Assembly: GCA_964518475.1 (NCBI GenBank)
Contig: CAZFGR010000002.1
Location: 32,001 to 96,000 of the forward strand
Length of the DNA: 64,000 bases
Source: an uncultured Nitrososphaerota archaeon
GTDB lineage: Archaea > Asgardarchaeota > Njordarchaeia > Njordarchaeales > Njordarchaeaceae
Direction: 5' to 3'
The first letter of the stretch is position 1; each line of letters opens with the position of its first letter. The notes beneath the pieces are model-generated. The model searched no databases and had not been told where the DNA came from. It was given only the letters and a program-made list of their open reading frames with translations. This document shows positions 21,236 to 40,827 of this stretch, piece by piece. The translations under genes and the position numbers were made by a program.

Positions 21236-22284
21236 TGGGAGAGGATCAAGGCTGGACCTACGCTAAAGCTGGAGTGGATATTGATAAGGTATCTATCCTC
21301 CAGCGCCACGCTTTTAGAGTAATCGAGGATCTTTTCAAGAAACTTGGTGTTCCGGTACACGGGTTAAGGGGTAGATTCACAACATTTGTTGAAGCCAATG
21401 GTTTAAGGATCGCTATGCATGTTGATGGAGTTGGCACAAAGGTATTAGTTGCTCAACTCGTTAATAGTTATTGGCAAGTCGGTCAAGACGTCGTGGCTAT
21501 GAATGTTAATGATTTGATAGCGGGTGGAGCTGATCCATTCGCGATAGTTGATTATTTGGCGATGGAGAAACCCGATGAAGAGGTTTTTAAAGGCGTTATG
21601 GAGGGGTTATCACGTGCGTGTGAAGAGGCTAAAGTTATTTTGATGGGGGGCGAAACAGCTATAATGCCGGATATTATAAAAGGCGCCGTTCCTGGGAAAG
21701 GGTTTGATCTAGTGGCTACTGGATTAGGTCTTGTGAAATGGGATACGGAAACTGGTTCTCCAGGAGATGTTCTGGTTGGTTTTGAGAGCAATGGTATTCA
21801 TTCTAACGGATTATCCCTTGCTAGAAAAGTTCTTTTATCCAAGTATAGTGTCCATGATCCATTCCCGTACGATCCAGAAAGAACAATTGGGGAAGAATTA
21901 TTGAGGCCTACGAGAATATACGTTAATCTATGTAGGGAGTTATGGAGAAGAGGAATCGTTAAGAACTTCGCCCATATTACTGGTGGAGCTTTTAGGAAAA
22001 TCAAGAGAGTTCTTAGAGAAGATTCTGGAGTACTTATTGATGTGCCAGAACCACCGGCTATTTTCAAACTTATTAAGGAGGAGGGACATATAGCTTGGGA
22101 GGAGATGTATAAAACATTTAACATGGGCGTTGGCATGGTCGCGGTAACTATAAGCGATTATGTGGAAGAAATTATCTCTGTCGCGAAGAAATTCGGTATA
22201 AATGCTTTTCTCCTAGGTAAGGTTGTTAGTGAGGAAGGAGTAAGGATAAGAATTCCAAGAGTTGGAGAGGTGAGAATCCAATGA
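21235..22284 (+). CDS. purM: AIR synthetase
   Basis: YAKAGVDI, DGVGTK, VAMNVND, GGETAIMP, SNGIHSNG, HITGG, TFNMGVG. Confidence 0.97.
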   Translation: MGEDQGWTYAKAGVDIDKVSILQRHAFRVIEDLFKKLGVPVHGLRGRFTTFVEANGLRIAMHVDGVGTKVLVAQLVNSYWQVGQDVVAMNVNDLIAGGADPFAIVDYLAMEKPDEEVFKGVMEGLSRACEEAKVILMGGETAIMPDIIKGAVPGKGFDLVATGLGLVKWDTETGSPGDVLVGFESNGIHSNGLSLARKVLLSKYSVHDPFPYDPERTIGEELLRPTRIYVNLCRELWRRGIVKNFAHITGGAFRKIKRVLREDSGVLIDVPEPPAIFKLIKEEGHIAWEEMYKTFNMGVGMVAVTISDYVEEIISVAKKFGINAFLLGKVVSEEGVRIRIPRVGEVRIQ

Positions 22285-23291
22285 GTGAAATAGAGACCAT
22301 AGCTACATTGGCTAGTCACTCAGCTTTGCAAATCCTTAAGGGGGCTAAGGATGAAGGTTTCAAAACACTAGCTATTTCACTTAAGAAGCGATTAAAGGTT
22401 TATCAGAGATTCCGCCACTTTATAGATGATATCATCGTTGTGGAGGACTTTAAAGAACTTGTTAATAAGGATATTCAGGAAGACTTGTTAAGGAGAAAAA
22501 CAATTCTAATACCCCATGGAAGCTTTGTGGAGTATCTAGGGATAGAGAACATCGAGAAGTTAGAAGTTCCAGTGTTTGGTAACAAGAAACTTATGATATG
22601 GGAATACGATGCTTGGAGAAAACTTGAGTTACTGGAGAAGAGCGGTATTAAGACTCCAAAACTCTTCAAGAAAGTTCAAGAGATTGATAGACCAGTAATA
22701 GTGAAGTTTCCTGGTGCTAAGGGTGGGCGGGGATACTTCATAGCTAGGAATGCTGAGGAGTTCAGAAAAAAGATTAAGGAAAGAAACCTCGATCCCGCAC
22801 AATTAATCATTCAAGAATACGTCTTTGGAACACCTATGTATTTTCATTATTTTTACTCACCATTATTGAATAGACTTGAATTACTGGGAGCCGATATTAG
22901 GTATGAGAGTGAGGTGGATGGAATTAAGAGATACCCATACCCCGTCGAGAACTATACATTCACGGTCGTCGGGAATATCCCTCTCGTTTTGAGGGAGTCA
23001 TTACTTGAACAAGTTTTTGATTATGGGGAAAAATTTGTTGAAACAACGAAGAAGTTCCTGCCTCCTGGTGCAATTGGGCCTTTCTGTTTAGAAGCTATTT
23101 GTAGAAGTGATTTAGAGATTGTTGTTTTTGAGTTTTCTGGCCGCATTGTTGCTGGCACTAATCTCTATATCCACGGATCTCCGTATAGTTGGTTATATTT
23201 TGATGAGCCTATGAGTAGTGGGAGGCGTATTGCTCGAGAAATAAGAATGGCTCTTGAAATGGATGCTCTCGATAAAATTGTTGTGAGGTGA
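22281..23291 (+). CDS. purP: FAICAR synthetase (PurP)
   Basis: [47 protein letters not shown]. Confidence 0.92.
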
Positions 23292-23296
23292 TTTTT

Positions 23297-24403
23297 ATGA
23301 TAAATGTGGATGAGATGAGAAGAATCATTAGGAATGAGTATGATTGGAGCAATATCCATATTGGTGTCCTAGGGAGTCACTCCGCTTTGGATGTGCTAGA
23401 TGGAGCCAAGGATGAAGGATTCAAAACAGTTGTTATATGCCAGAAAGGGAGAGAAAAACCCTATTTAAGATTCAAAAGATTATGCGACGAAGTGATAATC
23501 CTTGATAAGTTCCGTGATATGGTTCGCGAGGATATTCAGGATAGGTTAAGAGAGCTTAACACAATATTTGTCCCTAATAGGAGTTTCTCGGTATACGTAG
23601 GGTATGAAAATATAGAAAATGCATTTAGGGTTCCTATATTTGGTTCTCGCCACTTATTAAGAGCTGAGGAGAGGACTGGTGAACTGAACTATTATAAGAT
23701 CCTAGATGCTGCTGGTATAAGAAGACCACGAACATTCAAGGATCCATCAGAGATTGATAGACCAGTAATAGTTAAGGCCATGGCCACTGGTAGTGTTGAG
23801 AGGGCGTTTTTCGTCGCCGTGAGTCCCGAGGATTTCTGGTCAAAAGTTGAGAAGCTTGCTAAGCAAGGATTATTGACGAAGAAAGAGCTCGAGAAAGCTT
23901 CTATAGAGGAACTAGTTATCGGAGTTGATTTCAATTTTAATTATTTCCACTCAATTGTTCGTGGAGAAATAGAGTTTCATGGAATAGATAGGAGGTTGCA
24001 GACCAATATTCATGGTTTAGTAAGGTTACCAGCAAGTATCCAGCTAGAGCTAAGCAATATCACTATCAGAAACGTTGAAATAGGTCATATGCTAGCAACG
24101 ATCAGGGAGTCCCAGTTAGTAAAAGTTTTTGACATGGGTGAGAGTTTCGTCAAGACACTCTCCAAAATGTACCCACCAGGAATCATAGGACCCTTCACAT
24201 TACAAACAATAGTGACCGAGAACTTAGAGTTCGTAGTCGTGGATGTAGCTTTCCGAATAGGTGGGGGGACAAATGTGTGGGCTGGAATAGGGAGCCAGTA
24301 CAGCAAGTTTTACTTCGGCCAACCCATAAGCATTGGTAGAAGAATAGCAATAGAGATCAGAGAAGCAATCGAACAAGACATGCTCGATAAGATAGTTACA
24401 TAA
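23297..24403 (+). CDS. PurP-like ATP-grasp protein (second, divergent group)
   Basis: GSHSALDVLDGAKDEGF, VPNRSF, ERAFF instead of GGRG, GPFTLQ, RIGGGTN. Confidence 0.88.
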   Translation: MINVDEMRRIIRNEYDWSNIHIGVLGSHSALDVLDGAKDEGFKTVVICQKGREKPYLRFKRLCDEVIILDKFRDMVREDIQDRLRELNTIFVPNRSFSVYVGYENIENAFRVPIFGSRHLLRAEERTGELNYYKILDAAGIRRPRTFKDPSEIDRPVIVKAMATGSVERAFFVAVSPEDFWSKVEKLAKQGLLTKKELEKASIEELVIGVDFNFNYFHSIVRGEIEFHGIDRRLQTNIHGLVRLPASIQLELSNITIRNVEIGHMLATIRESQLVKVFDMGESFVKTLSKMYPPGIIGPFTLQTIVTENLEFVVVDVAFRIGGGTNVWAGIGSQYSKFYFGQPISIGRRIAIEIREAIEQDMLDKIVT

Positions 24404-24533
24404 CCTCCTAATTCTACTAATATTCTCTGAGAAAAAATCATAAGATAATTAGAGACAATCTATCTCTAGTTTCTAATAAAACTCTTTTTAATTATTGTAA
24501 TCCCTCTAAGAATTTAGGAATAAAGGTTCATAG

Positions 24534-24974
24534 GTGTGTAATAAAGTGGAGATAGTAGAATCTAGGCCGGGAATTATAAAACTTTCGGATAATACGACAC
24601 TAACGCTTAAAATAACAATAATTGATGCTCGCGAAGTTGGATTTTCGCCTTTCGGGGGAGTACATATAGCTGTAAAGGCTGTAGGAGGCATAAGTACTAA
24701 GAACGTGCCTCATGAATTACGGGAAAAAGTCTCAGATAAACCATTAGCTACTTCGCAAATACCTAAGGATGGCTGGGAATTGATTGATATTAGAGAGCAG
24801 GAAGAGGCTTGCGAAAAAGTAAAAATTGATACATCTAGGGGTAAGTTTCTGGTTAATGTTCGGGCGGAAGCTACCATGGCTGCTCGTAATATGCAATATA
24901 AAAACGAGTTTAACGAGCCCATTTACATGCTGAGTTGGGTCTATAAGGTTTCTTGGAGACCGGTGAGAGAGTGA
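24534..24974 (+). CDS. Hypothetical protein, apparently two tandem copies of a small beta-rich module
   Basis: 146-aa ORF whose stop overlaps the next start (TGATG). Confidence 0.7.
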   Translation: MCNKVEIVESRPGIIKLSDNTTLTLKITIIDAREVGFSPFGGVHIAVKAVGGISTKNVPHELREKVSDKPLATSQIPKDGWELIDIREQEEACEKVKIDTSRGKFLVNVRAEATMAARNMQYKNEFNEPIYMLSWVYKVSWRPVRE

Positions 24975-25549
24975 TGTGGGAGTATTCCCAAATTACAGAC
25001 TATGGAAAAATAAGGGACAGCACAGTTTTGACGATTTATTATCCGATACAGGAACTACCCAGACTAACCACACAAACTTTAAGAAAAATTCTAGAAGAAG
25101 CTGACGAGTTGCTGAAGAGAAAGGAGTATATCCAGGCTTGTGAAAAATACTATAAAGTAATGGAGGAAGTCATAAAAAAGCTGACAGAATTGTATAAGGA
25201 GAAATCACGATTACTAACCAACTTTATTAATTATGTAAGAAAACGTGGAAATTGGAATACTTTTATCTTACAACGTGCTGCTGAGGAATTAAGAAGAATA
25301 CTTAATGAGGAATTAGGAGGAGGCATCGGTGACAAGATCTATGAAGCTTGGGAAGCAGCTCTTAGATTACACAGAGATTGCTTCCATGAGCAAATCCTAG
25401 GTGATACCGTAATAAAAGAGAAGAGAGATATTATAACCGAGACATTCAATCTAATAGCAAGAGAACTTGAGAAGTTAGATATTCACTACATAAAATTAGA
25501 AGAAGACTCAACAGGATTCGAAACTCCCCTAAATAGCGCACACACATAG
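24974..25549 (+). CDS. PaREP1 family (HEPN-like) protein
   Basis: QACEKYYKVMEEVIKKL and AWEAALRLH.DCFHE motifs; ATG 24974 with GGTGAG SD. Confidence 0.8.
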   Translation: MWEYSQITDYGKIRDSTVLTIYYPIQELPRLTTQTLRKILEEADELLKRKEYIQACEKYYKVMEEVIKKLTELYKEKSRLLTNFINYVRKRGNWNTFILQRAAEELRRILNEELGGGIGDKIYEAWEAALRLHRDCFHEQILGDTVIKEKRDIITETFNLIARELEKLDIHYIKLEEDSTGFETPLNSAHT

Positions 25550-25679
25550 ATACGTACGTACGAGAAACGATTAAAGCTCAGCCACGTATAAGAAAATAAC
25601 CAACATCCAGTAATCGTTCCAGTAAGTAGAAGCTCTTACTCTTTTATAATTGAGGGAGAGATCTGTTCCCTAGTCTCTT

Positions 25680-25906
25680 TTCTATATTGTCATCCCTTCT
25701 CTCTTAATAGTTCTAATGAACTGTGTTTTTTCTGCCTCAAAAATCGTTCTCCGAGATGTAGATCATTGTTACGGGAAAAACTCTAGATATATCTTATCTG
25801 CAACCTTCTCGGCGAAATCCTTAACTTCTTTGGGATCTTCTTGATACATAACCGCGACATCGACATCATTATCTGGTCTATACTCCTCAGCGCAACAGAA
25901 CTAAAA
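25680..25906 (-). pseudogene. Degraded minimal nucleotidyltransferase (MNT)
   Basis: Minus-strand fragments SVA..EEYRPDNDVDVAVMYQEDPKEVKDFAEKVADKIYLEF and FIRTIKREG, broken by stops and frameshifts. Confidence 0.65.
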
Positions 25907-26033
25907 CTTTTAGATAATTAGATAATTCGAAAGATGCGTGCGTATTATGATATAAAAACTCAAATTCTTAGAGAGTTGTTTCGAATTTTCTACTTTTTCT
26001 AATCTAGTTCTCACAAGCTAACGTCTCTCTCGC

Positions 26034-27184
26034 GGCTTTGTGGTAGAGTAGCTTTATAGGTACTATACTCGTATTACCTGCGACTATCCAGAAAAGAGCG
26101 TCCTAGTGAAAATATATTGACTTTATGAGTTCATAATTATTAGGGTTACTTATAAACTAGCTAAAAAAACTTACCAGCCCGAGGAGGCATATCATAATCT
26201 CTAAGATAGCTGTTCTGACATAAGGAATTCCCAGCAATTAAAGCTATGAACGAGCATTAGACGATTTCAAAAATTCAACATGCATAAAAGAGGCAGTCTA
26301 AGAAGAGTGTAAACTCTCCCTCCATGACTAAATGAAAGAAGAGTCCATTAGGCATGGTAATCCCACTGATAAGGCTCTTTCTTTACAAACTGGCGAGAAT
26401 GAAGACTTGCGGGAAATTATTAGTGATTGCGAATGGAACTAGTATTGGACTTGAGGAAGCATCAAGCTACTACTTAGAGAGATGGGAAAGAGAATGAGAA
26501 TGCTCGCTATTAGCTGTTCTGCACGCTCCGAAGGTCGACGTCTTCTTCGATGCTGTCGCTACTCTCTATTGTATTTCTCTGAGATCAAAGCCTTCACAAA
26601 CTACTTCCTCAAAACCCTGGTGAATGCAGGATCTTCTGGAGAATTCACGGATAAAAAACCTGATGCAACCGACGCTATAGAAGCCATAAAGATATAGCTT
26701 AGTTCACATCCCCCACTTAGGCTTGAATAACAACTTACAAGACCTTCTGGAACTCGTTTGACAATGTCAGAAATCTTGTAAAGTCCGTTTTATCTTTTTA
26801 AAGTCATGATTAAGAAAATAATATACAGTAGGTCGGTTTGGTTGGTAATGTTAAGAGTCTCATGGAGGCTGTCTTCTCCTCTCTAAAGGCTATGGTCGGA
26901 GACATGATCTATAGTAAGTCTTGGAAAGCGAGAATCTGCGACGTCTTCATCGTAATCCTAGCCTATAACGAGGCCAGAATAATAGCGCTAAGTCCCAATT
27001 AATGGCTTAAGAGGAGTCTAGAAGGCTGAACGGGACAAGGGGCCAAAAAGATAAATTTGAAACAAAGCCTAGTAGATCCTAAGAGACAAGAATCTGCGAC
27101 ACTTTCGTCGCAACTCTAGGTTATGGCGTGGCTGGGATGATTATGTCGAATCTCAATTAGTGGCTAAAAATGATCTAGAAAGCC
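26034..27184 (+). mobile_element. Degraded IS5/IS4-type DDE transposase remnant(s)
   Basis: Fragments LLVIANGTSIGLEEASSYYLER, EFTDKKPDA (degenerate DKGYD) and SLMEAVFSSLKAMVGDMIYSKSWKARICDVFIVILAYN (26853-27002); candidate ends GGCTTTGT 26034 and ACAAAGCC 27062-27069. Confidence 0.7.
26913..27184 (+). repeat. Diverged direct repeat of the transposase 3' end and IS terminus (26913-27027 and 27071-27184)
   Basis: RICDVFIVILAYNEARIIALSPN* versus RICDTFVATLGYGVAGMIMSNLN*; the copies end in TCTAGAAGGCT and TCTAGAAAGCC. Confidence 0.7.
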
Positions 27185-27336
27185 GAGGCAACACCTTTAA
27201 TCTTTATATAAGTAGTGATTAATGAGAGTTTGGAAATCGATAAGGATAAATAATATAAGATTAGAATATATATTCCTAAAGATCACTATGAATTCCTTTA
27301 TAATCAACAGTAATCACCCCTCAGGGGTGATTACTG

Positions 27337-29577
27337 TTGAAAAACTTCGCGAAAATTTTTCTTCTTTGCTTTCTAGTCCTCTCAATAATCTCTATTAATG
27401 CCGTTTATGCTACTATTCTAAGTATAGTTGCCAGTGAAGAATATTCATCACTTGTAGATAATTCGACTTTTGATGATGGACTTTCTGGGTGGACGCTTGT
27501 TAAGGGATCCGGAGGGCCTACGAGTGGGGGATTAGATAGTGGTAACGTTTGTCTCTATGTCTCGCCTAGTTATGATGCTAGTAGTGGTAAATGGGTATTC
27601 GAGATGAAGGCTCCAATATCCTCTAGCGAGTTACCGTTTATGGAGTGGCTGAAGAGTCCTTATCGTGGTGTTTCTTTTTCGTATTGGTTTAGGCTTGTTA
27701 ATGATGTGAGCGAGTATGTGAGTGCGTATGCGTATATTGAATATTCCTACACTTCTAGCATTGGTGGTTGTCCATTCGCCGCTATTTGGGATGGGGAGAA
27801 GTACGTTCTCGTCAACAACATTCTTCCTAATGCCCGTAGTTATGAGAATATGACTATGGTGGAGGATTACTTATTTATTGATCCCTTATTGATCGAGGAT
27901 ACCGTCAAACTCAAAATTTTAGAGTTCCAGCGAGAGATGAGCTATATAGACAGTATTAGTTTATTCTCATTCGATTACCCCTCCCACTATAAAGTTGCAC
28001 AGTTGGATAATGGTTCTCCAGTCCTATGGCATCCAGAAATCATAAAAATACCATCAATAGTGATTAACTCTAATGGGTCTATAGTCACTGACAAGATTAT
28101 CTGGGAGGATTACCTACCCTATATTGGACAAAAAGATGACTACATAATTTTAGAATTTTCGAACATCTCAAAGGCCTACGACCTACTCTTAATAAAGGCC
28201 GATGATACGATAATAAAACTCTCACTAGAAGTATATGTTCTTATTAATGACACTTGGAGCTTTATAGGCAGGATCATTCCAAGGGAAATATACTCTTGGT
28301 ACGCCATTGACCTAGACCAATACGAGATTCCTTACAATGATAGCTTGAAGATGAAGATAAGGTTCACAGCCGAGCACAAGATTGACTTCATTGCCCTAAC
28401 AATGAAGGCACCAGATCGAGTAAAACTACGGAAGCTTAAATTGTTTAGAGCCGTTCATAATAGGCTTGGGAATAGTAAATACACTGTGAAATCAGATGAT
28501 AATAGGTATATAATAATACTCCCGGGTGACGAATTATACTTGATCTTTAAGGACGGGGAAAAACTCAAGCGCAATTATAAGAGAGGATACCTCCTCAAGG
28601 TCAGGGGATGGTATAGGACATTAAGCGACGAAGAATTCGCAAGGTATAAGGATAGAATAAAGAACATGGATCCAACAGTAACAATCTCATCAGAAGAAAT
28701 TAAAGTAAAGGAATCAAACACTTGGGTACAAGTCCCAGTCTACTACGGTGACTTCCCAGATACATTAGAATCAGTCTACTTCAAAATCAGACTAGAATCA
28801 CCAGTACAATTCAACGCGTATATAGACTGCGCATTCGCCCACTTCGCCATGCAGATATCAAGCAGCAATGAAGCAGGATCAGCAAAAATCGTAGCAATCG
28901 TGACACGGGTAAATGTGCAGAAGAATACAAAGCACAATATAACAGATATATACTTATGCTTCGCATTAATAGTATACTCCTCAGATGGCAAAGGAATTTA
29001 TACGGCAAAAATGTCCGTGGAAAGAACAGATTCTGACAGTGTTGGTGATGTGAGAGAATTAATTAGTTTTGAGGGAGTCAGCGATATTATCGGATATGAT
29101 AATGCAAAAGAAAATGCTACGCATGTGGCAGAATATAATGAAATAAGAATGAAAGAGACTCAAGCTATTTCCCAAGGACTAGCTGTAATTGGACTTCTCT
29201 TAACAGTATTGGGGATAATAACTGGAGAAGGAGCAATAATCTTTGGCATTGGTAGTCTTGTAATTAGTACAACTAGCGTGTGCCGCGCATTTCTTATTAA
29301 CAATACAGATTTAATAGATAATAATGATGGGGATAGGATCATTCACACCCAGTTGCCTACAACAATTAGTGCGAATCCTAATGAAGGACGCGTAACAACT
29401 AAGGGAGCGTTGAGCGCTCCAGTTCACTGGATAACGATACTAGACTATGGAGAAAATAAATTATATGTGCGGGGTTATATCGAGTTTGGAACAATAATCG
29501 ATACTTCTGATGTTATTTATATAGGACCACCTTACTTTGAATTGACAGTATCTCTGACAATCTTAGCTAAATTATAA
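27337..29577 (+). CDS. Large secreted multidomain protein (CBM-like domain with an inserted CP..WDG domain; C-terminal hydrophobic hairpin)
   Basis: Signal peptide; NSTFDDGLSGW...YID jelly-roll signature; GGCPFAAIWDG...PGDELYLIF...GWY insert; GGGGTGA SD. Confidence 0.75.
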   Translation: MKNFAKIFLLCFLVLSIISINAVYATILSIVASEEYSSLVDNSTFDDGLSGWTLVKGSGGPTSGGLDSGNVCLYVSPSYDASSGKWVFEMKAPISSSELPFMEWLKSPYRGVSFSYWFRLVNDVSEYVSAYAYIEYSYTSSIGGCPFAAIWDGEKYVLVNNILPNARSYENMTMVEDYLFIDPLLIEDTVKLKILEFQREMSYIDSISLFSFDYPSHYKVAQLDNGSPVLWHPEIIKIPSIVINSNGSIVTDKIIWEDYLPYIGQKDDYIILEFSNISKAYDLLLIKADDTIIKLSLEVYVLINDTWSFIGRIIPREIYSWYAIDLDQYEIPYNDSLKMKIRFTAEHKIDFIALTMKAPDRVKLRKLKLFRAVHNRLGNSKYTVKSDDNRYIIILPGDELYLIFKDGEKLKRNYKRGYLLKVRGWYRTLSDEEFARYKDRIKNMDPTVTISSEEIKVKESNTWVQVPVYYGDFPDTLESVYFKIRLESPVQFNAYIDCAFAHFAMQISSSNEAGSAKIVAIVTRVNVQKNTKHNITDIYLCFALIVYSSDGKGIYTAKMSVERTDSDSVGDVRELISFEGVSDIIGYDNAKENATHVAEYNEIRMKETQAISQGLAVIGLLLTVLGIITGEGAIIFGIGSLVISTTSVCRAFLINNTDLIDNNDGDRIIHTQLPTTISANPNEGRVTTKGALSAPVHWITILDYGENKLYVRGYIEFGTIIDTSDVIYIGPPYFELTVSLTILAKL

Positions 29578-29595
29578 AAGCGAGGATGGTTAAGA

Positions 29596-31254
29596 ATGCT
29601 TACCAAGCGATTAGTCTTTACTTTATGTTTACTGTTTATAACTGCTTCTCTACTCCGCCCTTATTACATTGTTCTCGGATCTCTTGGAGAATTATCTTAT
29701 GTGAAAATCACAGATTACTCACCAATTAATGCAACCATTAAGTGGTTGAGACGGGATCTAGGAAGAGATTTAGAATCTCCTCCATTGGTTTGTGATGTTA
29801 ACAATGATGGGTCACAAGAAGTCATCGTTGCTGGAAGAACTGTAGATAATAAGTGTAATGTATGGGCATTCGATCTTGAGACTGGATCCATTGTATGGCA
29901 TACTATACTTCCGGAAATTCCAATCCTTCCAGCTTTATCTACTAGTGATTTAAATGGTGACGGATTTCTAGACATACTTGTTCGAACTGAGAACAAGATC
30001 TTTATTTTAAATGGAAGCGATGGAAGCGTAGAGTTCACTTTAAGTACCACTGCTTATTCCGTCGCTCCCTTCATAGATATTAATAACGACGGATTTAGAG
30101 AAATCGTTGTTGCTGAGACACACAGACTAGTCGTCTTTAGTGGTCTGGATGGTTCCGTTTTATGGAGTTTTAGACTTGATGGTCGCTTTGGTGCGTTTGC
30201 CTTCGCTGACGTTGATGGTAATGGTTTGTGGGAGATTATTGTTGCTTATGACTCTAATGGATCGCATCCCTTCACTCTTCCCGATACTCTTCTCGTTTTT
30301 TCTTCTGATGGGAGGTTGTTGAGGGGTATTAATCTTGGGCTTAAGGGTGGGGATTATATTATTTCTGAGCCCCTTATAGTTGATGTTAATGGGGATGGGT
30401 TGCTCGATGTTGTTTTATCATCGATTTACAATTGTCTCGCGGTTGATCTCTTCTCCGGGAGGGTGTTGTGGAGGCTTAACTATCTAGACTGCCTAGACGA
30501 GGTTTCAAGGACTTACGTTACGTGGACCTTCGGCGTTTTCCCATCTATCGGCGATATCAACTCTGATGGAGAGTTAGAAATCTTAATAGCCTCTAGATTT
30601 CTAATGTTTATTATTAGTTCTGACGGTGAGCTTTCATACTATGCAATGCTTCCCGAGTCTAATTTCTTATACGAGGGCTTTGGCGCTATCGGCGACGTCG
30701 ACGGCGATAACCGATGCGAGATAGTGATCGGAGGAATTACCACAATCTGGATATTTGACTGGGATGATAAGAGATTTTACTCTATCCCTATTGGCTGGGA
30801 ACAAAATGCTAAACCAGCGACACTGGTGGATATTGATGGGGACTCCGACGTGGACATATTAGTGGCTGGCCAAGATAGACTTTACGCTTTCGACTTATTA
30901 AGTAGTGGCTTTAGAATAGATTTTCCATTCCCCTCTATTAATGGTTCCTACATTGGCAACTATATGTTAATTGACCCCGACCTAGATGGATTATCCACAT
31001 ATTCTGAGAAACTCGTTGGTACTGATCCATATTCTTATGACAGTGACGGTGACGGATATAATGATGGATATGAAGTAGCGAATAACATGAATCCACTAAA
31101 ATTTGACGAGAGACCCCCCTCGCCTCCTCCTAAATCACCTATAAGTCTTTATCTCCAGATTGCTACAATAGTTGGGGTTTCTACCATCGGATTAATAGTA
31201 GTGATAGCATATATTAGATCAAAAAAGAAGTTAAGTAAACATTTGATGAGTTAG
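29596..31254 (+). CDS. Membrane-anchored FG-GAP/VCBS beta-propeller protein with TSP3-like Ca-binding repeats
   Basis: About 8 DxNxDGxxE/DI repeats, DPDLDGLS..E..GTDP...DSDGDG, Pro-rich linker, C-terminal TM plus basic tail. Confidence 0.88.
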   Translation: MLTKRLVFTLCLLFITASLLRPYYIVLGSLGELSYVKITDYSPINATIKWLRRDLGRDLESPPLVCDVNNDGSQEVIVAGRTVDNKCNVWAFDLETGSIVWHTILPEIPILPALSTSDLNGDGFLDILVRTENKIFILNGSDGSVEFTLSTTAYSVAPFIDINNDGFREIVVAETHRLVVFSGLDGSVLWSFRLDGRFGAFAFADVDGNGLWEIIVAYDSNGSHPFTLPDTLLVFSSDGRLLRGINLGLKGGDYIISEPLIVDVNGDGLLDVVLSSIYNCLAVDLFSGRVLWRLNYLDCLDEVSRTYVTWTFGVFPSIGDINSDGELEILIASRFLMFIISSDGELSYYAMLPESNFLYEGFGAIGDVDGDNRCEIVIGGITTIWIFDWDDKRFYSIPIGWEQNAKPATLVDIDGDSDVDILVAGQDRLYAFDLLSSGFRIDFPFPSINGSYIGNYMLIDPDLDGLSTYSEKLVGTDPYSYDSDGDGYNDGYEVANNMNPLKFDERPPSPPPKSPISLYLQIATIVGVSTIGLIVVIAYIRSKKKLSKHLMS

Positions 31255-31352
31255 CCTATTCACCACATAATAGAAAAATCACTTTGATAATCTTCTTTCT
31301 TTTTATGCCATATTTTAGTCTCTTAATTGAAGAATTTTTACGCAGAGATGCA

Positions 31353-32393
31353 CTACTCGTAATATCCGATTAGTTGTGAGAGTATTTTTGAGTATCTAAA
31401 CCCTATGACTGGTAGTTTTTTCTTTCTTGCTGTCTCGATTGCTAGTATCTGGTAATATATTGTAGCGATTATTGCTATGTTGAACTCATCCATTTGTGGT
31501 AGCTCTACTACTCTGCCACTCCACCTTGTCTCGGTATCATTCGTTAGTATTACTGGTTTGGCCTTGATACTGTTTAGTGCTTCTGATAATGCTCTCATCT
31601 TTGAAATACTCTCGCCTTTAAAAGCGTTTAGAAAAACTATATCGCCTTGATCTATGGAGATCATCCCATAATGCGAGAATTCCTCGGCCTCGAATGGTAT
31701 AGAGTGAAGCCAGGCAGCCTCTCTCAATTTTGCACCTCCGAAGAGTGCGGATACGAATCCTGGCCCTGCACCAACTAGGTAAGCATAAGATTTCTTCACT
31801 AGCATTTCTGCATCTTTACTAGCTTGCGCGAGGAGAGTACGCATATTTGATTCTATCCATTTAATCAATGACTCAGCACTACCGATTCTTACTCCGCCTA
31901 GTTCTCTAGTTAACATGTTTAGGGAGAGCATAGCTGTCGTACTTGTAGCTGATGGAGGACCAAAAGGCTTAGTTACTTGAGTTTCTATACATAGATCCAA
32001 TATTCTCGCTAGTGGTGATAATGCATCATTCGTAACAGCAAGGATTTTCAGACCTTTCTTTTTAGCATATTTCGCAGCTTCTATAGTCTTGGATGTTCTC
32101 CCAGAAGCAGAGATAGCCACCAAAACACTCTTGTCCCAAATATTAGACTTATACTTCCAAAATTCGTACGATTCAAAAGCTTGAGCTTGTAGATTCGTGA
32201 ACTTCTCAAATAGGAGAGCACCATAAATAGCTACGAAATAACTGTCACCACAACCCACTAAGTATACGTTCTCTACACCATCAAAGACACTCACTAACTC
32301 ATCTAGGCGACGCCGTATCCAATTAGCAGTATCTCTTAACGCAATAGGTTGATCCTTAATAATATGTGACAATAAGCGTTCCAGAAACGACAA
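31353..32393 (-). CDS. SIS-domain sugar-phosphate isomerase/deaminase (GlmD/FrlB-like)
   Basis: GCGDS, ISASGRT, AVTN, KLREAA, EEFSHY; two SIS domains, no GATase domain. Confidence 0.85.
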   Translation of the reverse strand: MSFLERLLSHIIKDQPIALRDTANWIRRRLDELVSVFDGVENVYLVGCGDSYFVAIYGALLFEKFTNLQAQAFESYEFWKYKSNIWDKSVLVAISASGRTSKTIEAAKYAKKKGLKILAVTNDALSPLARILDLCIETQVTKPFGPPSATSTTAMLSLNMLTRELGGVRIGSAESLIKWIESNMRTLLAQASKDAEMLVKKSYAYLVGAGPGFVSALFGGAKLREAAWLHSIPFEAEEFSHYGMISIDQGDIVFLNAFKGESISKMRALSEALNSIKAKPVILTNDTETRWSGRVVELPQMDEFNIAIIATIYYQILAIETARKKKLPVIGFRYSKILSQLIGYYE

Positions 32394-32645
32394 AGAGAAT
32401 CACCCTTTAAAGTATTACTATCAAAAGTGAAAATCCAGAAGATCTAAACAAATATTTTGTTCTTAAAGAAAAGATACAGAGCACAAATCTTTTACTTCAT
32501 CCAAATTAACCCACCAGATATCGGTGACCTATAAGATATTTGCTGGGTATCGATATTATCAAAACATACTTGCCTTGATAAAAACGCGTTTTATACATGA
32601 TAGTTATATGGCTAAGCTAAATTCTAAAATTGGTGATTAGTTCTG

Positions 32646-33140
32646 CTATAGGGTATATTGTTTCCTGGATTCAAGCCATTTCTGCAGTTTCGCAAATTTC
32701 TCTTCTGTTATAGGGTTTATGGGTTCTATTTCCTCTATTTTTGCGAAATCGTTTACATCGGTGGTGTATACGATTCTTAATCCTAGGTCGTGCATTATAG
32801 TTACTAGGTAGGCGTCCCAAGAATCAATTAAATAGTTCTTAGCGATTCTCATACTTCTTCTCACGCGGTTTAAACTTAGGTCAGAGAACCATAATGCTTC
32901 TCCTATACCGACTAGAGAATATAACTTATCTGCCACGTCATCTGGGCGCGCTCTTAGATAATGCACAGCAACAATGAATGCTCCCATAATGCTACTTAAT
33001 GGAATTACGCATCGTATCTCTCCCTTCAGTACTTTGTTTAACCACTTTAAGGCATCGTTCTGGGCTGGGTTCTCTACGATAGCGAGAGCTATCGGGCCGA
33101 CATCGGCTATTGCTTTATACCGAGCTTCTTTTCTGCCCAT
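32646..33140 (-). CDS. PIN-domain toxin (VapC)
   Basis: IADVG, DSWDAYLV, YTTDVNDF. Confidence 0.82.
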   Translation of the reverse strand: MGRKEARYKAIADVGPIALAIVENPAQNDALKWLNKVLKGEIRCVIPLSSIMGAFIVAVHYLRARPDDVADKLYSLVGIGEALWFSDLSLNRVRRSMRIAKNYLIDSWDAYLVTIMHDLGLRIVYTTDVNDFAKIEEIEPINPITEEKFAKLQKWLESRKQYTL

Positions 33141-33385
33141 TTTCTGTCCGCCTCAGAAGAAACCCCTTTCTCTACATCATAAACAAATGGCTTCGCAGGA
33201 TTCCTCCTTATAAAATCAATTACCGAATCTACATCCTCGACATCTATTGATATACTACCCTGCCTAATCCAGAGCAACATAGCTTCCTCAAGCGCTTCCC
33301 GAATACTAATCCCTCTAAGAGCCGCTAACGCTTTAAATTTTCGGTAGATTTCATCATCAATACCTCTAATCGTTACAGAAGACAT
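33107..33385 (-). CDS. Ribbon-helix-helix antitoxin (VapB-like)
   Basis: VTIRGIDDEIYRKFKALAALRGISIREALEEAM; overlaps the PIN gene; start moved to ATG 33385. Confidence 0.8.
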   Translation of the reverse strand: MSSVTIRGIDDEIYRKFKALAALRGISIREALEEAMLLWIRQGSISIDVEDVDSVIDFIRRNPAKPFVYDVEKGVSSEADRKWAEKKLGIKQ

Positions 33386-33404
33386 CACAACCACCAAATA
33401 ATCA

Positions 33405-33441
33405 ATTATAGTAAGCAAAGTATTAAAAATCATACTATAAT
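33405..33441 (-). promoter_or_regulatory. Probable autoregulatory operator of the vapBC pair
   Basis: Perfect 9-bp inverted repeat ATTATAGTA/TACTATAAT flanking a minus-strand TTTTTAATA TATA box. Confidence 0.5.
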
Positions 33442-33605
33442 AATTTTGCATAATTTTCATAAAATTGTTGTGATCAAGCTATGAATCCTTGTTTACAAGA
33501 CTTTCACTCCCATATTATCAACTTCACGTCATGTATAAAAATACGAAAAAAATACCTTGAATATGCTTAAAACTTATAGATCTTTTCTCGAAAGGATCAT
33601 AGAGT

Positions 33606-34469
33606 ATGCTAGGTTACATATATGCGTTCATGTCGGCTCTTTGCTGGTCATCCGCAGCTATTCTTTACGGATACGCTGTTAAGAATAGAGATCCTTTAAT
33701 GGTAACTATTCTTAGAATACACCCAGCTTTCTTAGTCACGTTAATCGGTGTTCTATTGCTCAGGGAATTGAAGCTGGAGATCTTATTTGATCCATGGATC
33801 CTGCTACTGGCTATTATAACTGGTGCCATAGGAATGTTCTTAGGATCCTACACCTATATGTATTCCTTGAAGAAAGCGGGTGTATCGGTGGTTTATCCAA
33901 TAGCTTTCAGTTACCCAATATACGTCTCGTTGATAACGATAGCTTTTCTAGGGGAGCGATTCAGCGTAGGAATCCCAATCGGATTAGCTCTCTTAATAAC
34001 CGGTCTATACCTCATATCCTCCGAAAAATCCACGAGCAGAGAAAAGGATTATAGAAAAGGTGTTATAGTAGCTGTTATAACCTCCCTTATATGGGCTCTC
34101 AATGCCATTTTAGCTAAAATAGCTCTATACAGGGCGCCACCAGTACTCTTCGCCATGATGCGTTTATTAACTCTATCTATCCTTGTGACCCCCTTACTTC
34201 TTCAACGGATCTATGAGGCAAGGGAGTTTAGTCGTAGCGAGTTACTGGCAGCTACTATTGGTGGAGCTATAGGGATTGGAATCGGTTTAATATTTTCCCA
34301 TCTAGCTATAGTAGATATAGGAGCTGCCAGAACAACAATAATTGGTTCTTCATCCCCAGCACTATCAATATTATTAGCCACTATATTTTTGAAAGAAAAG
34401 CCGGGAAAGAGGGCTTTGATTGGAGCCTTAATAGTTAGTGCAGCAATATTCGTGGTAGCAATCTTCTAG
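33606..34469 (+). CDS. EamA/DMT family transporter
   Basis: 10 TMs in two repeats, FLGERFS and FLKEKP motifs. Confidence 0.9.
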   Translation: MLGYIYAFMSALCWSSAAILYGYAVKNRDPLMVTILRIHPAFLVTLIGVLLLRELKLEILFDPWILLLAIITGAIGMFLGSYTYMYSLKKAGVSVVYPIAFSYPIYVSLITIAFLGERFSVGIPIGLALLITGLYLISSEKSTSREKDYRKGVIVAVITSLIWALNAILAKIALYRAPPVLFAMMRLLTLSILVTPLLLQRIYEAREFSRSELLAATIGGAIGIGIGLIFSHLAIVDIGAARTTIIGSSSPALSILLATIFLKEKPGKRALIGALIVSAAIFVVAIF

Positions 34470-34574
34470 ACATTCACCAAGCAAAAAATGAAATCTTTAA
34501 AATGTCGCTTTATTATACATTATATTTAAATAGATGTTACGAAGAAGATTATTTTTTAGGAGACTTATTATCTC

Positions 34575-34994
34575 TTGGTGGTGCCTTTGGCCGGGCATTT
34601 CGTTAGAATCCGCATTAGATCGAATTTTTCAACAATTTTTAGATTACTTTTAAGTGGATTTGGGAATATTTACTGTAAAGTTTTTGCCAGAGAGAATAAG
34701 AGGATTGGAGCCATTTTGGATGAGAAGTGGTTCCTTAGGACAAATTCCTCTGTGGCTTTAGCGATTTTTGTTGAAGAGCTGTCATCGGATGAATGTCTTG
34801 TGGATCTCGTGTCTTATGCTGGTGGAGTTGGATTATTAAATATTTCCTGGGACTCTCATCTCGACTATATTGCTGATGTCTTGCGTTTTCTGAAAAGTCA
34901 TAACATAGAATTTAAGAAGGAGATGGAGATTAATTATCTATATCCAACTAACTGGCCAGATGATGTCAAGAGGATGCTAGCGGAGCTGGGATGA
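34575..34994 (+). CDS. Hypothetical protein (possibly DUF6054-like)
   Basis: 139-aa ORF, VDLVSYAGGVGLLNISW; lies directly upstream of the ABC pair. Confidence 0.55.
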   Translation: MVVPLAGHFVRIRIRSNFSTIFRLLLSGFGNIYCKVFARENKRIGAILDEKWFLRTNSSVALAIFVEELSSDECLVDLVSYAGGVGLLNISWDSHLDYIADVLRFLKSHNIEFKKEMEINYLYPTNWPDDVKRMLAELG

Positions 34995-35000
34995 TTTTTA

Positions 35001-35798
35001 GTGGTGATCTCTTTGGAGAACGCTGTTATGATCGAGGTAAGAAACCTGGTTAAGTATTATGGTTCTGTAAGAGCTGTTGATGGTATATCCTTTGAGGTCA
35101 GAGCTTGTGAGATTTATGGTCTCTTAGGACCTAATGGAGCTGGGAAAACGACTACTCTGAAAATTATTGCTGGTCTTCTGAAGCCCACCGCTGGTGAAGT
35201 CTCTGTGTTGGGTTCTTCTCCTGTAGAAGATCCAGTTACCGTTAAGAGGCTTATAGGGTATGTTCCGGAGGAGGTCTCTCTCTACGATTCCTTGACTGTT
35301 ATGGAGTTTCTTGAGTTTGTTGCTTCTGTAAGGGGGTTGGATCCCTCTGTCTGGTCTTGGGTAGATACTCTTATGAAATCGTTCGAGATAACGCATTATA
35401 TGTACACTCCTATAGGAGCCTTATCGCAGGGAACGAAGCAGAAAGTAGCTATTATAGCGGCACTGATGCATAGACCAAAGGTATTGATTCTTGATGAACC
35501 TCTTAAGGGCCTTGATGCTAGATCTGCTAGGATTTTTAAGGAGCTTATGCAGCTCCATATCAGGAACGGTGGTGCTATTCTGTTTTCTACTCATATTATG
35601 GAGATTGCTGAGAACATATGTACTAGAATAGGTATTATCCATAAGGGAAAGATCTTAGCTGAGGGGTCTGTTGATGATTTAAGAAAATTGGCTAATGAAC
35701 CATCGGGTAGGTTAGAGGAGGTATTTTTACAGCTCACTAAGGAGAGGGAGGAGATTTCTCATATTATTGAGGAGCTTAGGAGGGAGCTTTCCAAATGA
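35001..35798 (+). CDS. ABC exporter ATP-binding protein
   Basis: GPNGAGKTT, LSQGTKQK, ILDEP, STH. Confidence 0.95.
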   Translation: MVISLENAVMIEVRNLVKYYGSVRAVDGISFEVRACEIYGLLGPNGAGKTTTLKIIAGLLKPTAGEVSVLGSSPVEDPVTVKRLIGYVPEEVSLYDSLTVMEFLEFVASVRGLDPSVWSWVDTLMKSFEITHYMYTPIGALSQGTKQKVAIIAALMHRPKVLILDEPLKGLDARSARIFKELMQLHIRNGGAILFSTHIMEIAENICTRIGIIHKGKILAEGSVDDLRKLANEPSGRLEEVFLQLTKEREEISHIIEELRRELSK

Positions 35799-37411
35799 GG
35801 TCTCTGAGGGATTTATGGAATTACTCTAAGATTGTTTATAGGGAAATGCTTTTTCGAATGCTCTCGTTTCAACAAACAGTATCCATTACCGATCCAGAAT
35901 CTATCAAAAAACTCGCTAGATCAGCGAATCAATCTCTTTATCTTCACAAGATCTTTATGTTGATAGCAACTGTTATAATAACCATGTCTACTGCTTTCTC
36001 CGCGTCATTCCTTTTTTCACAAATGAGTGGTGGAAAATTGGTCTATTCTCTTTCCCTCTTGTTTCTCTCTTTTTTATTACTGAGTGCTTTCATGTTATTC
36101 TTTATGGCGGTTATACAGGTATCCATACTCATGTCTCCAGATATTTACCAGCCCTTACTAGTTCTTGATTTTGATGACAAGGAATTATCTCTTATCTCCT
36201 CTTTCGCACTGATAAGGATATTCGATGCGTTTATCATTGGTTCCCCAATCCTTACTATCGTGACATTCGCTTTTACTCGGAGAATTCTTCCTGGTTTTCT
36301 ACTAGCGATACTTCTTGGCGCTACCTATCTCATCACACTATATTTAATGGTTATATTAGGGAAAAACTATATTAGATTCGCGACACCTGAAGTATCTGGC
36401 GCAAGACTTATCTTGAGGGTATTTATTCTGCTCGGTTACACAATAGTCTTCTCCCTTCTATACCTGATACCATTCGTAATCAATAATCTAATGCCCCAAG
36501 TCATCGAGGCCTTTCTAGCCACACCAGAAACTTTCAGAAGAATTCTAACCTATATTCCACCATTCTCCGCTACCTACCTTGTGGCTCTTATTTACGCAGG
36601 CAATGGAAGTACTCAGGGAATCGCTATACCAATTCTTTCTTCCCTAGGTTATTTGGTAATCGCATGGATAAGTTTTAAGAAAATGATATCAGTAGTCGGG
36701 GAAATTCCCTATCTCTCCCAATTGGTATCGGCTAGAAAAGAGGTTATGATGGGAGCTCCGAAAATAAGACCACCATTCATAGGAATAATTCGGAAGGATT
36801 TCAAGTTATTGATTCGTCAAGTCAATTACGCCATGCTTCTATTTCTGGGCCCAGTGCTGTTTGGGATTTATGCAATAATCTATTATCTCATGGAGATTCC
36901 TTTAACAATGCTAACCGGTATGTCATACGTGATAATTTTCACTATTTTCATGACGGCTACTAGTATATTGGCGATAGATGGTAAGGGCGGAGAATTCCTA
37001 CTTAGTCTGCCCGTGAGTTTGAAAGACATAGCTAAAAGCAAAGCATTCCTCATAACCACTTCATATGTAATATTTGGGGTATTCGCACTCGTTTTCTTTG
37101 CAATAGTTTTGCCTCACGAAATATCGTTAGGAGAAGCTATCCTGCTAAATACCGTTGGTGTCTTTGCTGGTAGTTATCGCGTATTGAGAAAAGCGATAAC
37201 ACAAGTGATGGAGAGAGGGGAGCCTTTAACTGATTTAGCTAAAAACGTGATATATCTACTCTACGTTATGGGAATCTCGCTTATCTATGGAATCCTACCA
37301 CTAATAATAGTTCAACTAAGCTTTTTAATTAGAATTCGGATAGTAGAAACTCTCATAATAGCGCTCATCTTTCAGATAATATACTTTGTTACATACAAGA
37401 TTTCAAAATAA
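35795..37411 (+). CDS. ABC exporter permease
   Basis: 12 or more TMs, RKDFKLLIR, LLSLPVS; ATGA overlap with the ATPase. Confidence 0.8.
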   Translation: MRSLRDLWNYSKIVYREMLFRMLSFQQTVSITDPESIKKLARSANQSLYLHKIFMLIATVIITMSTAFSASFLFSQMSGGKLVYSLSLLFLSFLLLSAFMLFFMAVIQVSILMSPDIYQPLLVLDFDDKELSLISSFALIRIFDAFIIGSPILTIVTFAFTRRILPGFLLAILLGATYLITLYLMVILGKNYIRFATPEVSGARLILRVFILLGYTIVFSLLYLIPFVINNLMPQVIEAFLATPETFRRILTYIPPFSATYLVALIYAGNGSTQGIAIPILSSLGYLVIAWISFKKMISVVGEIPYLSQLVSARKEVMMGAPKIRPPFIGIIRKDFKLLIRQVNYAMLLFLGPVLFGIYAIIYYLMEIPLTMLTGMSYVIIFTIFMTATSILAIDGKGGEFLLSLPVSLKDIAKSKAFLITTSYVIFGVFALVFFAIVLPHEISLGEAILLNTVGVFAGSYRVLRKAITQVMERGEPLTDLAKNVIYLLYVMGISLIYGILPLIIVQLSFLIRIRIVETLIIALIFQIIYFVTYKISK

Positions 37412-38832: not shown

Positions 38833-40473
38833 TTATAGCTGGTGGGCAATTACTTTCTTTTTCTTCAATTTTACATAAAGTAAAATAGTCACAACAATAG
38901 TAGAAGATATTGCAATCGCAACAACCACACTTAATATCAACGAATCGAAAGACGTTGTTTGCACTTTATCGGCTCTTATTGGATTCATATTGTTCGCTAC
39001 TTCATAGCCATCTCCGTACCCGTCTCCATCACTATCATATGAATAAGGATTGGAACCGATAAGCTCCTCGGAATATGTAGATAACCCGTCTAGATCAGGA
39101 TCAATCAATAGGTAATTCCCAATATAAGACCCATTAACAGATGGAAACGGAAAATCAATCCTAAAACCGCTACTCAACAAATCAAAGGCGGTAATCCCAT
39201 CAGTGCCGGTAACAAGCATATCGACGTCGGAATCATCATCTATGTCGACCAATGTTACTGGTTTAGCATCTTGATCCCAGCCAATGCCAGTATAGTAAAA
39301 CTTCTTCTCGTCCCAGTCGAAAACCCAAATATAGTGTATTCCGCTAATCACGATTTCAGACCTATTATCACCATCGACATCCCCAATAGCACCAAATCCC
39401 TCGTAAATATAATTGTACTCTGGCAACAATGTATAATACAGCAATTTACCATCATTACTAATGATGAACATGAGGTATGCAGATACGACGACGATTTCTA
39501 GTTCTCCATCCGAGTTAACATCTCCCACAGATGGGGAAACGCCAAAAGTCCACCTAACATAATGCCTAGTGCGTTCATCTAGTATATAATCTAGGTAATC
39601 AAGTCGCCATAGAATTTCTCCAGAAGAAAGATCAATAGCAAAACAACTATAAATCGAGGAGAGAAAAATATCTGGAGAACCATCCCCATTAACATCCACT
39701 ATAATAGGCTCAGAAAAAATATAATCTCCCTCAAGGAGATCCAAGCTAACACTCCTCAACAGAGTCCCATTGGCAGATAAAAGAAGCAAAGTATCAGGCA
39801 TAGAAAAACGATGAGTACCATTAGAATCATACGTAGCCACGATTTCCCATGAACCATCATTGTCAAGATCAACGAAAGCAAACTTACTGAAAAGACCATC
39901 CCACGAAAGACTCCACAAGACCGAACCATTAAGCCCGCTAAAAACTATCAAGTCATGTCTTCTAGTCACAATGATTTCTCCGATACCATCGTTGTTTATA
40001 TCCATGAGAGGTCTAGCGAAACCAGTAATATTTAAAGCGAACTCTAATCCTCCACTAGCCCCATCTAATACATAAATATTACTTTCAGTATTCACGAGGA
40101 TTTCGAGGTATTCATCTTTATCCAAATTGCCAATTGATAAAGGTGCAACCAAAGGACCCGTCGAAACAGTAGTGTTCCACACCACAGAACCAGTCTTGAG
40201 ATTCAGCACCCAGACACCACAGTTATCATCAACTGTTGTCCCAGCCACGACAACCTCCAATTCTCCGTCGTTATTGGTATCACCCACTACTGGTGGTGAC
40301 CATATCGTTGGCTCTAAGTACTTCAACCATTTGATAGTTGCGTTAAGCAAGGAGTAACTACTAGACTCTATGAATAATTGGTATTTATTCTGAGTAACAC
40401 TGAAGTAGAGATTAGAAATAATCACCATAGAAAATAGTAAGAAAAGTAATATGATTGATTTGCCATGTCGCAT
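38833..40473 (-). CDS. Membrane-anchored FG-GAP beta-propeller protein, paralog of 29596-31254
   Basis: Same repeat architecture; near-identical AFDLLSSGFRIDFPFPS...DSDGDGY.DGYEVANNMNP block; TM plus KKKK tail. Confidence 0.88.
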   Translation of the reverse strand: MRHGKSIILLFLLFSMVIISNLYFSVTQNKYQLFIESSSYSLLNATIKWLKYLEPTIWSPPVVGDTNNDGELEVVVAGTTVDDNCGVWVLNLKTGSVVWNTTVSTGPLVAPLSIGNLDKDEYLEILVNTESNIYVLDGASGGLEFALNITGFARPLMDINNDGIGEIIVTRRHDLIVFSGLNGSVLWSLSWDGLFSKFAFVDLDNDGSWEIVATYDSNGTHRFSMPDTLLLLSANGTLLRSVSLDLLEGDYIFSEPIIVDVNGDGSPDIFLSSIYSCFAIDLSSGEILWRLDYLDYILDERTRHYVRWTFGVSPSVGDVNSDGELEIVVVSAYLMFIISNDGKLLYYTLLPEYNYIYEGFGAIGDVDGDNRSEIVISGIHYIWVFDWDEKKFYYTGIGWDQDAKPVTLVDIDDDSDVDMLVTGTDGITAFDLLSSGFRIDFPFPSVNGSYIGNYLLIDPDLDGLSTYSEELIGSNPYSYDSDGDGYGDGYEVANNMNPIRADKVQTTSFDSLILSVVVAIAISSTIVVTILLYVKLKKKKVIAHQL

Positions 40474-40827
40474 CTCTAAACGCACCTTTTATCATACTAG
40501 GATTGCTAATACGGTGAAGGATGCGTCCACTTACCTTAGAAGTGATATTATTTATACCAAATAACTTTATATCGCAATGTATAAAAAATAAAACACCACA
40601 TATAAATTTAACAACCGTCGTCAATTTTAACCATATATATGAGATAAGAAGAGGGGGATCGTAGGATAATCAACAACTAAGATATCTAAATATCTGGACT
40701 TGACTTATTTTGAAGAAGTAGAATCGAGGATAGGATAGAGCGTGATTAAGAGCATATTCAGAGAAATGAAGTGTATTCACTTATAAAAGTATGAATTTAA
40801 TAAGGAATTTTGAAAACAAAGCCAAGA

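Follow-up and report, generated by a model that had tools for sequence, protein, structure and literature searches.

The stretch of DNA analysed here (the window, 64,000 nt of contig CAZFGR010000002.1 in assembly GCA_964518475.1 of an uncultured archaeon of the Njordarchaeaceae, whose positions serve as coordinates throughout) contains two head-to-tail neighbouring genes on the + strand, designated A and B (Table 1). An earlier note on this DNA, made from its letters only, had described them as two genes 18 bp apart, each encoding a signal peptide. The open reading frames (ORFs) and the spacer agree with this layout, and both proteins start with a hydrophobic segment, with mean Kyte-Doolittle values of 2.47 for aa 7-25 of protein A and 1.78 for aa 2-20 of protein B. 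The N-terminal helix of A may serve as a signal peptide or as a signal anchor. As the 18 nt spacer leaves no space for a separate promoter of B, A and B are probably co-transcribed. The sequencing runs listed as containing the window did not include an RNA run. Four other DNA runs, labelled as hydrothermal-vent metagenomes, each contained a small share of the window in the form of short contigs, most of them identical to it; one 151 nt piece from these runs spans the A-B junction, and represents the same strain and not an independent one.

Table 1. Positions of genes A and B, their predicted domains and associated features in the window
Feature	Position	Strand	Basis or description
Palindrome	27310..27334		Perfect 12+1+12, GTAATCACCCCT-C-AGGGGTGATTAC; 2 nt ahead of the TTG start of A
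Gene A	27337..29577	+	ORF, 746 aa, TTG start
A, N-terminal hydrophobic helix, aa 1-26	27337..27414	+	Hydropathy 2.47 (aa 7-25), predicted helix 2-26
A, outer CBM4/16/22-type jelly roll, first part, aa ~35-140	27439..27756	+	VIA-align, AlphaFold2 model
A, inserted GCP domain, aa ~141-430	27757..28626	+	Motif GGCPFAAIWDG...NNILP; all-β
A, strands completing the outer jelly roll, aa ~445-510	28669..28866	+	VIA-align; model strands 447-510
A, C-terminal β-sandwich, first half, aa ~511-596	28867..29124	+	Model strands 514-596
A, Gly-rich hydrophobic hairpin, aa 597-655	29125..29301	+	Hydropathy; two predicted helices
A, strands completing the C-terminal β-sandwich, aa 656-746	29302..29574	+	Model strands 668-744, pLDDT 84-96
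A-B spacer	29578..29595	+	Exactly 18 nt, AAGCGAGGATGGTTAAGA; GAGG 8 nt ahead of the ATG of B
Gene B	29596..31254	+	ORF, 552 aa, ATG start
B, FG-GAP propeller region, aa ~45-460	29728..30975	+	Pfam and loops at aa 67-412
B, TSP3-like Ca-binding stretch (by motif), aa ~461-505	30976..31110	+	DPDLDGLS...DSDGDGYNDGYE; conserved in relatives
B, C-terminal transmembrane segment, aa 522-540	31159..31215	+	Hydropathy 2.47; followed by RSKKK
B2, paralog of B	38833..40485	-	550 aa, 59% identity, same architecture, 7.6 kb downstream, opposite strand

Protein A did not match any Pfam family at E ≤ 0.1 or any NCBIfam family, and its architecture was derived from an AlphaFold2 (AF2) model for which 42 aligned sequences served as input (predicted local distance difference test, pLDDT, 81.1; predicted template modelling score, pTM, 0.80). 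In this model, the N-terminal helix (residues 2-26) is followed by strands (53-138), an insert (147-428), further strands between residues 447 and 596, a pair of helices (597-629 and 634-655) and a last set of strands (668-744). Structural comparison using VIA-align showed that whole carbohydrate-binding module (CBM) chains of the CBM22, CBM16 and CBM4 types superpose across model residues 35 to 504/524 with only 139-151 residues aligned, and aa ~141-430 thus constitute an insert within a jelly roll. The individual matches were to 1h6x_A (Z 12.9, 151/159 residues), 2zew_A (Z 12.5) and 4bj0_A (Z 12.1), and the outer jelly roll of the predicted model was superposable on the CBM4_9, CBM16 and CBM22 folds with a root mean square deviation (rmsd) of 2.6-3.1. 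The split of a CBM-like jelly roll by an insert of ~285 aa, as first proposed from the translation, was therefore recovered in the model, where whole CBM modules bridge the insert and superpose on aa ~35-140 together with aa ~445-505. Sequence identity to these modules is only 13-15%, and A differs from them in that its module is interrupted by the 290-aa insert and has no glycoside hydrolase attached; the outer domain did not match any Pfam CBM family at E ≤ 0.1. The first part of A does have a start of the F-D/E-x-G-x-x-G-W type, which is typical of CBM4_9, CBM16 and CBM22 modules. A Foldseek search with the full model of A gave nothing interpretable (best TMq 0.10-0.15).

The C-terminal part of A is a predicted β-sandwich, which is interrupted mid-sequence by a Gly/Ser/Thr-rich hairpin. 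The two segments of this hairpin have hydropathy values of 2.25 (aa 610-628) and 1.63 (aa 634-652), and are hydrophobic throughout, lacking any pattern in which polar residues alternate with apolar ones. The hairpin is hydrophobic in most members of the A family, and is weak or absent in P0007 and P0008. The hydrophobic hairpin had been placed at aa ~610-648, within a C-terminal β-region, in the earlier note; its hydrophobic character was confirmed, but AF2 predicts two helices here and not a β-hairpin, albeit with low confidence (pLDDT 44-63). Most likely, aa 597-655 form a transmembrane helical hairpin, which would anchor A in the membrane with all of its β-structured parts outside the cell.

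The insert in the outer jelly roll, here named the GCP domain, behaves as a domain in its own right. Word-based homology searches with either the whole of A or its aa 433-746 recovered only A itself (among 7698 and 4297 candidates, respectively), and an exhaustive HMMER search with A matched 782 representative proteins at E ≤ 1e-3, 406 of them at E ≤ 1e-10. Nearly all of these 782 matches were confined to aa ~135-430, which shows that the insert is a separate unit of homology; among the matches listed, seven reach past the insert (P0002, P0003, P0004, P0007, P0008, P0075 and P0121). These seven can be aligned with A along the whole length, as can A2, a paralog of A in the window's own genome (G000:C17:146-2428, 760 aa, 34% identity over aa 8-621). 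When folded alone with 63 sequences, the GCP domain gave an all-β model with a pLDDT of 91.7, and its core (aa ~232-360 of A, model residues ~98-225) aligned in VIA-align with CBM32, CBM6, CBM35 and CBM36 modules at Z 9-11 over 106-125 residues (Z 10.8 over 116/129 residues for 7d2a_A). The resemblance to these modules is restricted to the middle third of the domain, at 7-15% identity and with no F5_F8_type_C match in Pfam, and a clear match was obtained neither for the N-terminal Cys-Pro subdomain nor for the C-terminal strands. No Pfam or NCBIfam model covers the GCP domain in the copies used, a GCP profile gave no match at E ≤ 1 to sequences in the PDB, and a Foldseek search with the domain model gave weak matches (best E 3.6e-4, TMq 0.30). 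Similarly, proteins that are little longer than the domain itself (P0040, P0029, P0050 and P0044) did not match any Pfam family, and P0040, P0078 and P0009 did not match any NCBIfam family. Listings and abstract openings from the full-text literature on CRTAC1, UnbV_ASPIC and FG-GAP proteins contained no paper describing this domain.

Alignment of 162 copies of the GCP domain showed conservation of the Cys-Pro pair within the G-C-P motif (C145 in 90%, P146 in 95%), of W151, G153, N160 and N161, and of a series of polar residues (D177, E196, E200, D205, D213, H214, D289, R316, H347, D350, H374, D388 and R416) at 83-96%, and the consensus shows that a GGGG linker usually lies ahead of the domain. 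Several of the conserved sites are changed in A and its closest relatives (D159V, H201M, H214Y and D355T). The end of the domain lies within 15 aa of the C-terminus in 108 of the 151 proteins with a full-length match, and the domains that accompany it in 88 scanned homologs are diverse, including Peptidase_S8 (three proteins), C1, C25 and C13 peptidases, Transglut_core, NosD/Beta_helix, Laminin_G_3, PKD, CARDB, PPC, CarboxypepD_reg, Cohesin and Por_Secre_tail, with FG-GAP present in only one of the 88. The GCP domain is thus a promiscuous module that is reused in secreted multidomain proteins. Its distribution is patchy: of the 301 genomes searched in the phylum, 17 contained the domain, and it was found in none of the six other genomes of the genus; the C-terminal part of A was found in the window's own genome only among 14 genomes of the class, and A is an accessory gene. 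Named records among the GCP relatives are mostly labelled Bathyarchaeia, and other matches are bacterial, CRTAC1-like proteins included.

Protein B consists of a putative signal peptide, an FG-GAP β-propeller, a TSP3-like stretch, a Pro-rich stalk, a transmembrane anchor and a basic tail. It matched the Pfam families FG-GAP_3 (6.7e-26, 91.1 bits against a cut-off of 26.9, in five stretches) and FG-GAP (3.1e-18, 65.7 bits against a cut-off of 22.1), and contains eight DxDxDG-type loops (D-x-[DNS]-x-[DN]-[GDNS]-x-x-[DE]) at aa 67, 118, 161, 205, 263, 320, 367 and 412, with a ninth such motif at aa 482 within the TSP3-like stretch. The columns of these loops, which by their motif are of a putative Ca-binding type, are invariant or nearly so in the family alignment (A5). 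The TSP3_bac match at aa 482-502 reached 23.3 bits, just below the cut-off of 25 bits, with the DxDxDGxxD motif present. Pfam, loop motifs and hydropathy are thus in agreement with the approximately eight Ca-type FG-GAP repeats, TSP3-like repeats and transmembrane anchor that the first description of the protein had listed. The same layout is common to many archaeal proteins in the family alignment, and B-like matches at E ≤ 1e-10 were present in 21 of 41 related genomes, often several and up to 14 per genome; by itself, B is a typical representative of a large family in archaea. Its paralog B2 is located between an enolase-superfamily-like and a thiolase-like gene (assigned by eye in both cases), with no A-like gene as neighbour. 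Integrin α chains and archaeal FG-GAP/TSP3 surface proteins resemble B in having FG-GAP loops of the Ca-type, a stalk, a single C-terminal transmembrane segment and a short basic tail. Integrin α has three or four Ca sites whereas B has eight Ca-type loops, a comparison made for B on its sequence. Furthermore, the integrin heterodimer needs a vWA/βI partner, while A, which is predicted to consist of jelly rolls and a β-sandwich and has no Pfam match at the threshold given above, has no vWA domain.

Whether genes with this domain consistently precede FG-GAP genes in archaea had been proposed as a check in the earlier note, and no such conserved adjacency was observed when the neighbours of GCP genes were screened by phmmer with the B propeller as query, combined with the loop motif. 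An FG-GAP gene was located next to a GCP gene in only 1 of 31 distinct GCP places outside the window (G011:C11), in none of six metagenome GCP loci (obtained by a scan with a 4-sequence alignment), and, within flanks of 1.5 kb, again only at G011:C11 among the 28 non-window GCP loci from the 301 genomes of the phylum. Since FG-GAP genes are numerous in these genomes, a single adjacency in ~30 loci is, as a rough estimate, close to what chance would give. The GCP gene at G011:C11 (L002/L011) itself seems to be split, as a 124-aa upstream ORF is similar to the N-terminal part of an intact homolog of 541 aa at L007, with one in-frame TAA in the gene.

The neighbours of the closest relatives of A were of other kinds. 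The paralog A2 is followed, 5 bp further on, by a gene for a 469-aa α/α-toroid (Prenyltrans) protein with a terminal transmembrane segment (L010:146-3842, G000:C17), and this pair is repeated on a metagenome contig (L039:2-3575), with the two toroid proteins 57% identical. The gene that follows P0002 is different again, and encodes an unrelated protein that begins with a hydrophobic segment. The recurrence of a second gene is therefore not specific to FG-GAP proteins, and the recurring arrangement is not "A plus FG-GAP". Two further arrangements were observed: at L021, a 1300-aa GCP protein is followed by a 461-aa toroid protein, and at three loci (L014:4563-7786, L067:352-3572 and L012:5634-8716) a protein of 714-782 aa with a C-terminal GCP domain is followed after ~30-90 bp by a 282-aa protein that has no Pfam family, which may be another recurring pair. 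A prediction of the complex between aa 35-510 of A and aa 30-510 of B, each with its own alignment and leaving out the C-terminal sandwich of A and the stalk of B, gave no answer (score 0.00 in each of two runs, mark 0.32, no controls) and is evidence neither way.

We favour the interpretation, to which we assign a probability of approximately 55%, that A and B are co-transcribed, membrane-anchored, lectin-like surface proteins that do not form an obligate co-evolving pair. In this interpretation A would display two nested lectin-like β-modules outside the cell, namely a CBM4/16/22-type jelly roll with the GCP domain in one of its loops, and would be held in the membrane by the helical hairpin within its C-terminal β-sandwich. 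The two proteins would be expressed together, and most probably both would act at the cell surface by binding glycans, polymers or particles from outside the cell. The GCP domain would then be an all-purpose module for extracellular binding or targeting, which many secreted enzymes also carry at their C-terminus.

Several observations weigh against this interpretation. Binding of glycans or other ligands by A and B is putative. The numerous Asp, Glu, His, Arg and Cys residues that are conserved in the GCP domain could serve a metal site or catalysis instead of plain binding, and the subfamily of A has lost several of the conserved residues. The packing of A and B is too tight for independent promoters, which hints at a real link between GCP and FG-GAP proteins, and G011:C11 is an independent archaeal locus with the same order, a GCP gene followed by an FG-GAP gene at 37 bp. 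In addition, A2, P0004 and P0002 (the three other full-length-type members for which downstream DNA was obtained) are each directly followed by a gene encoding a hydrophobic N-terminus, and both toroid partners end in a transmembrane segment, a hint of two-gene cassettes. Finally, there is a connection to bacterial CRTAC1-like proteins. The GCP profile (A2 profile) aligned to residues 768-1144 of P0154, a 1209-aa protein with TPR, FG-GAP_3 and UnbV_ASPIC (731-767) domains, directly after the UnbV_ASPIC domain (hhalign probability 98.3%, E 1.5e-14, 290 columns), and the same arrangement is apparently found in whole Atlas structure clusters, as three clusters (77, 68 and 85 members) align with the GCP domain at a template modelling (TM) score of 0.82 over ~290 residues, with UnbV_ASPIC in 73-79% of their members and FG-GAP_3 in 92% and 24% of the members of two of them. 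Furthermore, P0145 (2228 aa) has Peptidase_S8, FG-GAP, β-helix and GCP domains in one chain. The statement in the earlier note that a Cys-Pro domain follows FG-GAP/UnbV_ASPIC repeats in bacterial CRTAC1-like proteins was therefore correct, and the insert of A is related to that domain.

These similarities would fit a split version of the CRTAC1-like arrangement, in which FG-GAP propellers have the GCP domain as their dedicated partner, in cis in bacterial CRTAC1-like proteins and in trans here, with A and B forming a Ca-dependent heterodimer that functions as adhesin or receptor. The combination of GCP and FG-GAP in P0154, the Atlas clusters and P0145, the repeated gene order at G011:C11 and the 18 nt spacing of A and B all argue for this alternative, which we nevertheless consider unlikely, because FG-GAP neighbours are as rare as described above and, with up to 14 FG-GAP matches per genome, the one found is unsurprising. 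In addition, B2 has no A-like partner, A2 is paired with a toroid protein and the GCP domain follows many unrelated domains. Bacterial CRTAC1-like proteins do share the GCP domain and the FG-GAP propeller with A and B, but have both in a single chain with UnbV_ASPIC in between, whereas A and B are two membrane-anchored chains and neither matched UnbV_ASPIC (PF07593) at E ≤ 0.1; moreover, the GCP domain of A is nested in a jelly roll and is not C-terminal, while that of CRTAC1-like proteins follows UnbV_ASPIC. The dedicated Ca-dependent complex of A and B envisaged in the earlier note thus did not find support in the genomic data, and a two-gene "system" of A and B is unproven. The broader proposal, in which the GCP domain serves FG-GAP propellers as a dedicated docking partner, kept in one chain in bacterial CRTAC1-like proteins and divided over two membrane-anchored chains here, is doubtful to a similar degree; if it were true, A and B would represent an integrin-like surface heterodimer of a prokaryote that depends on Ca, and the nested CBM would be its ligand-binding head.

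A second alternative assigns an enzymatic or self-processing role to the GCP domain, with the Cys-Pro pair as cleavage or attachment site, a metal centre formed by Asp, Glu and His residues, and a degenerate copy in A. The strong conservation of C145, P146 and the many other polar residues, the GGGG linker ahead of the domain and the replacement of D159, H201, H214 and D355 in the subfamily of A could all be explained in this way. However, the fold matches are only to non-catalytic jelly rolls of the CBM and galactose-binding-like type, and there was no sequence match to a solved structure or named family. Clusters of conserved acidic residues are, moreover, a usual feature of structural Ca2+ sites in CBMs. 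We regard an enzymatic or self-processing role as improbable.

For the suggestion that A could be a membrane-inserting effector, there were only middling fold scores with the leukocidin family. Residues 502/503 to 746 of A aligned in VIA-align with the NetF pre-pore 9rsm_A (Z 9.8, rmsd 3.5, 160 aligned residues, rank 35) and with leukocidin 7t87_B (Z 9.5, rmsd 3.7, 165 aligned residues, rank 45), values in a range that is common for unrelated β-sandwiches. A Leukocidin-S cluster was present in the Atlas list obtained with aa 500-746, at a TM score of 0.30 that is below any fold threshold, and all matches in that search had TM scores of ≤0.33 and feature scores of ≤0.81. Like α-hemolysin and leukocidin, the C-terminal part of A is predicted to be a β-sandwich with a Gly-rich hairpin mid-sequence, which in a pore-forming protein would act as cap and stem, with the lectin modules aiming it and B displaying or anchoring it; this is highly improbable, as the Foldseek matches listed for the full model contained no leukocidin-family chain, A did not match Leukocidin (PF07968) at E ≤ 0.1 and has no rim-like domain, and its hairpin, which at aa 610-652 lacks the alternation of polar with apolar residues expected of an amphipathic stem and is predicted to be helical, suits a permanent transmembrane anchor and not a water-filled β-barrel.

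As an extracellular module, the GCP domain is both real and widespread, yet it has escaped annotation, and it terminates many secreted peptidases of sediment archaea. Learning its ligand or role would help to explain how uncultured archaea retain or target their extracellular enzymes, and a definition of the domain would provide a name for the C-terminal third of bacterial CRTAC1-like proteins, which is as yet unexplained. The nested build of A, with a CBM-type jelly roll interrupted by the GCP domain and a putative transmembrane hairpin inserted in a β-sandwich, is an unusual design for a surface protein.

The DNA upstream of A contains the palindrome listed in Table 1, which is single-copy in the window and for which 0 matches are expected in shuffled sequence; it is possibly an operator or a 5′ hairpin. 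A search of positions 20000-36000 against Rfam gave nothing at the gathering threshold, and a microRNA match at the palindrome in an E-value search of Rfam was at chance level and was rejected. The 1.8 kb upstream of A (25550-27336) is poor in ORFs, the longest being 71 aa, and contains a repeated element (especially at ~25976-26692 and ~26838-27070) for which the window's own genome gave 32 matches, many being at the ends of contigs. All aligned copies stop sharply at ...GATAAATTTGAAACAAAGCC, and one copy end is located at C17:1-84, directly upstream of A2. This repeat has no Rfam family, and a remnant of TnpB/IS605 was rejected as its origin, since none of the five PF07282 matches in the window's own genome is on the repeat. 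A PaREP1-family gene (Pfam) is located near A at 24953-25549; this gene and the Bathyarchaeia labels of most named relatives suggest an archaeal source of that general affiliation. Downstream of B, on the - strand at 32646-33460, there are two small overlapping ORFs of 164 and 117 aa, which by eye resemble a toxin-antitoxin-type pair.

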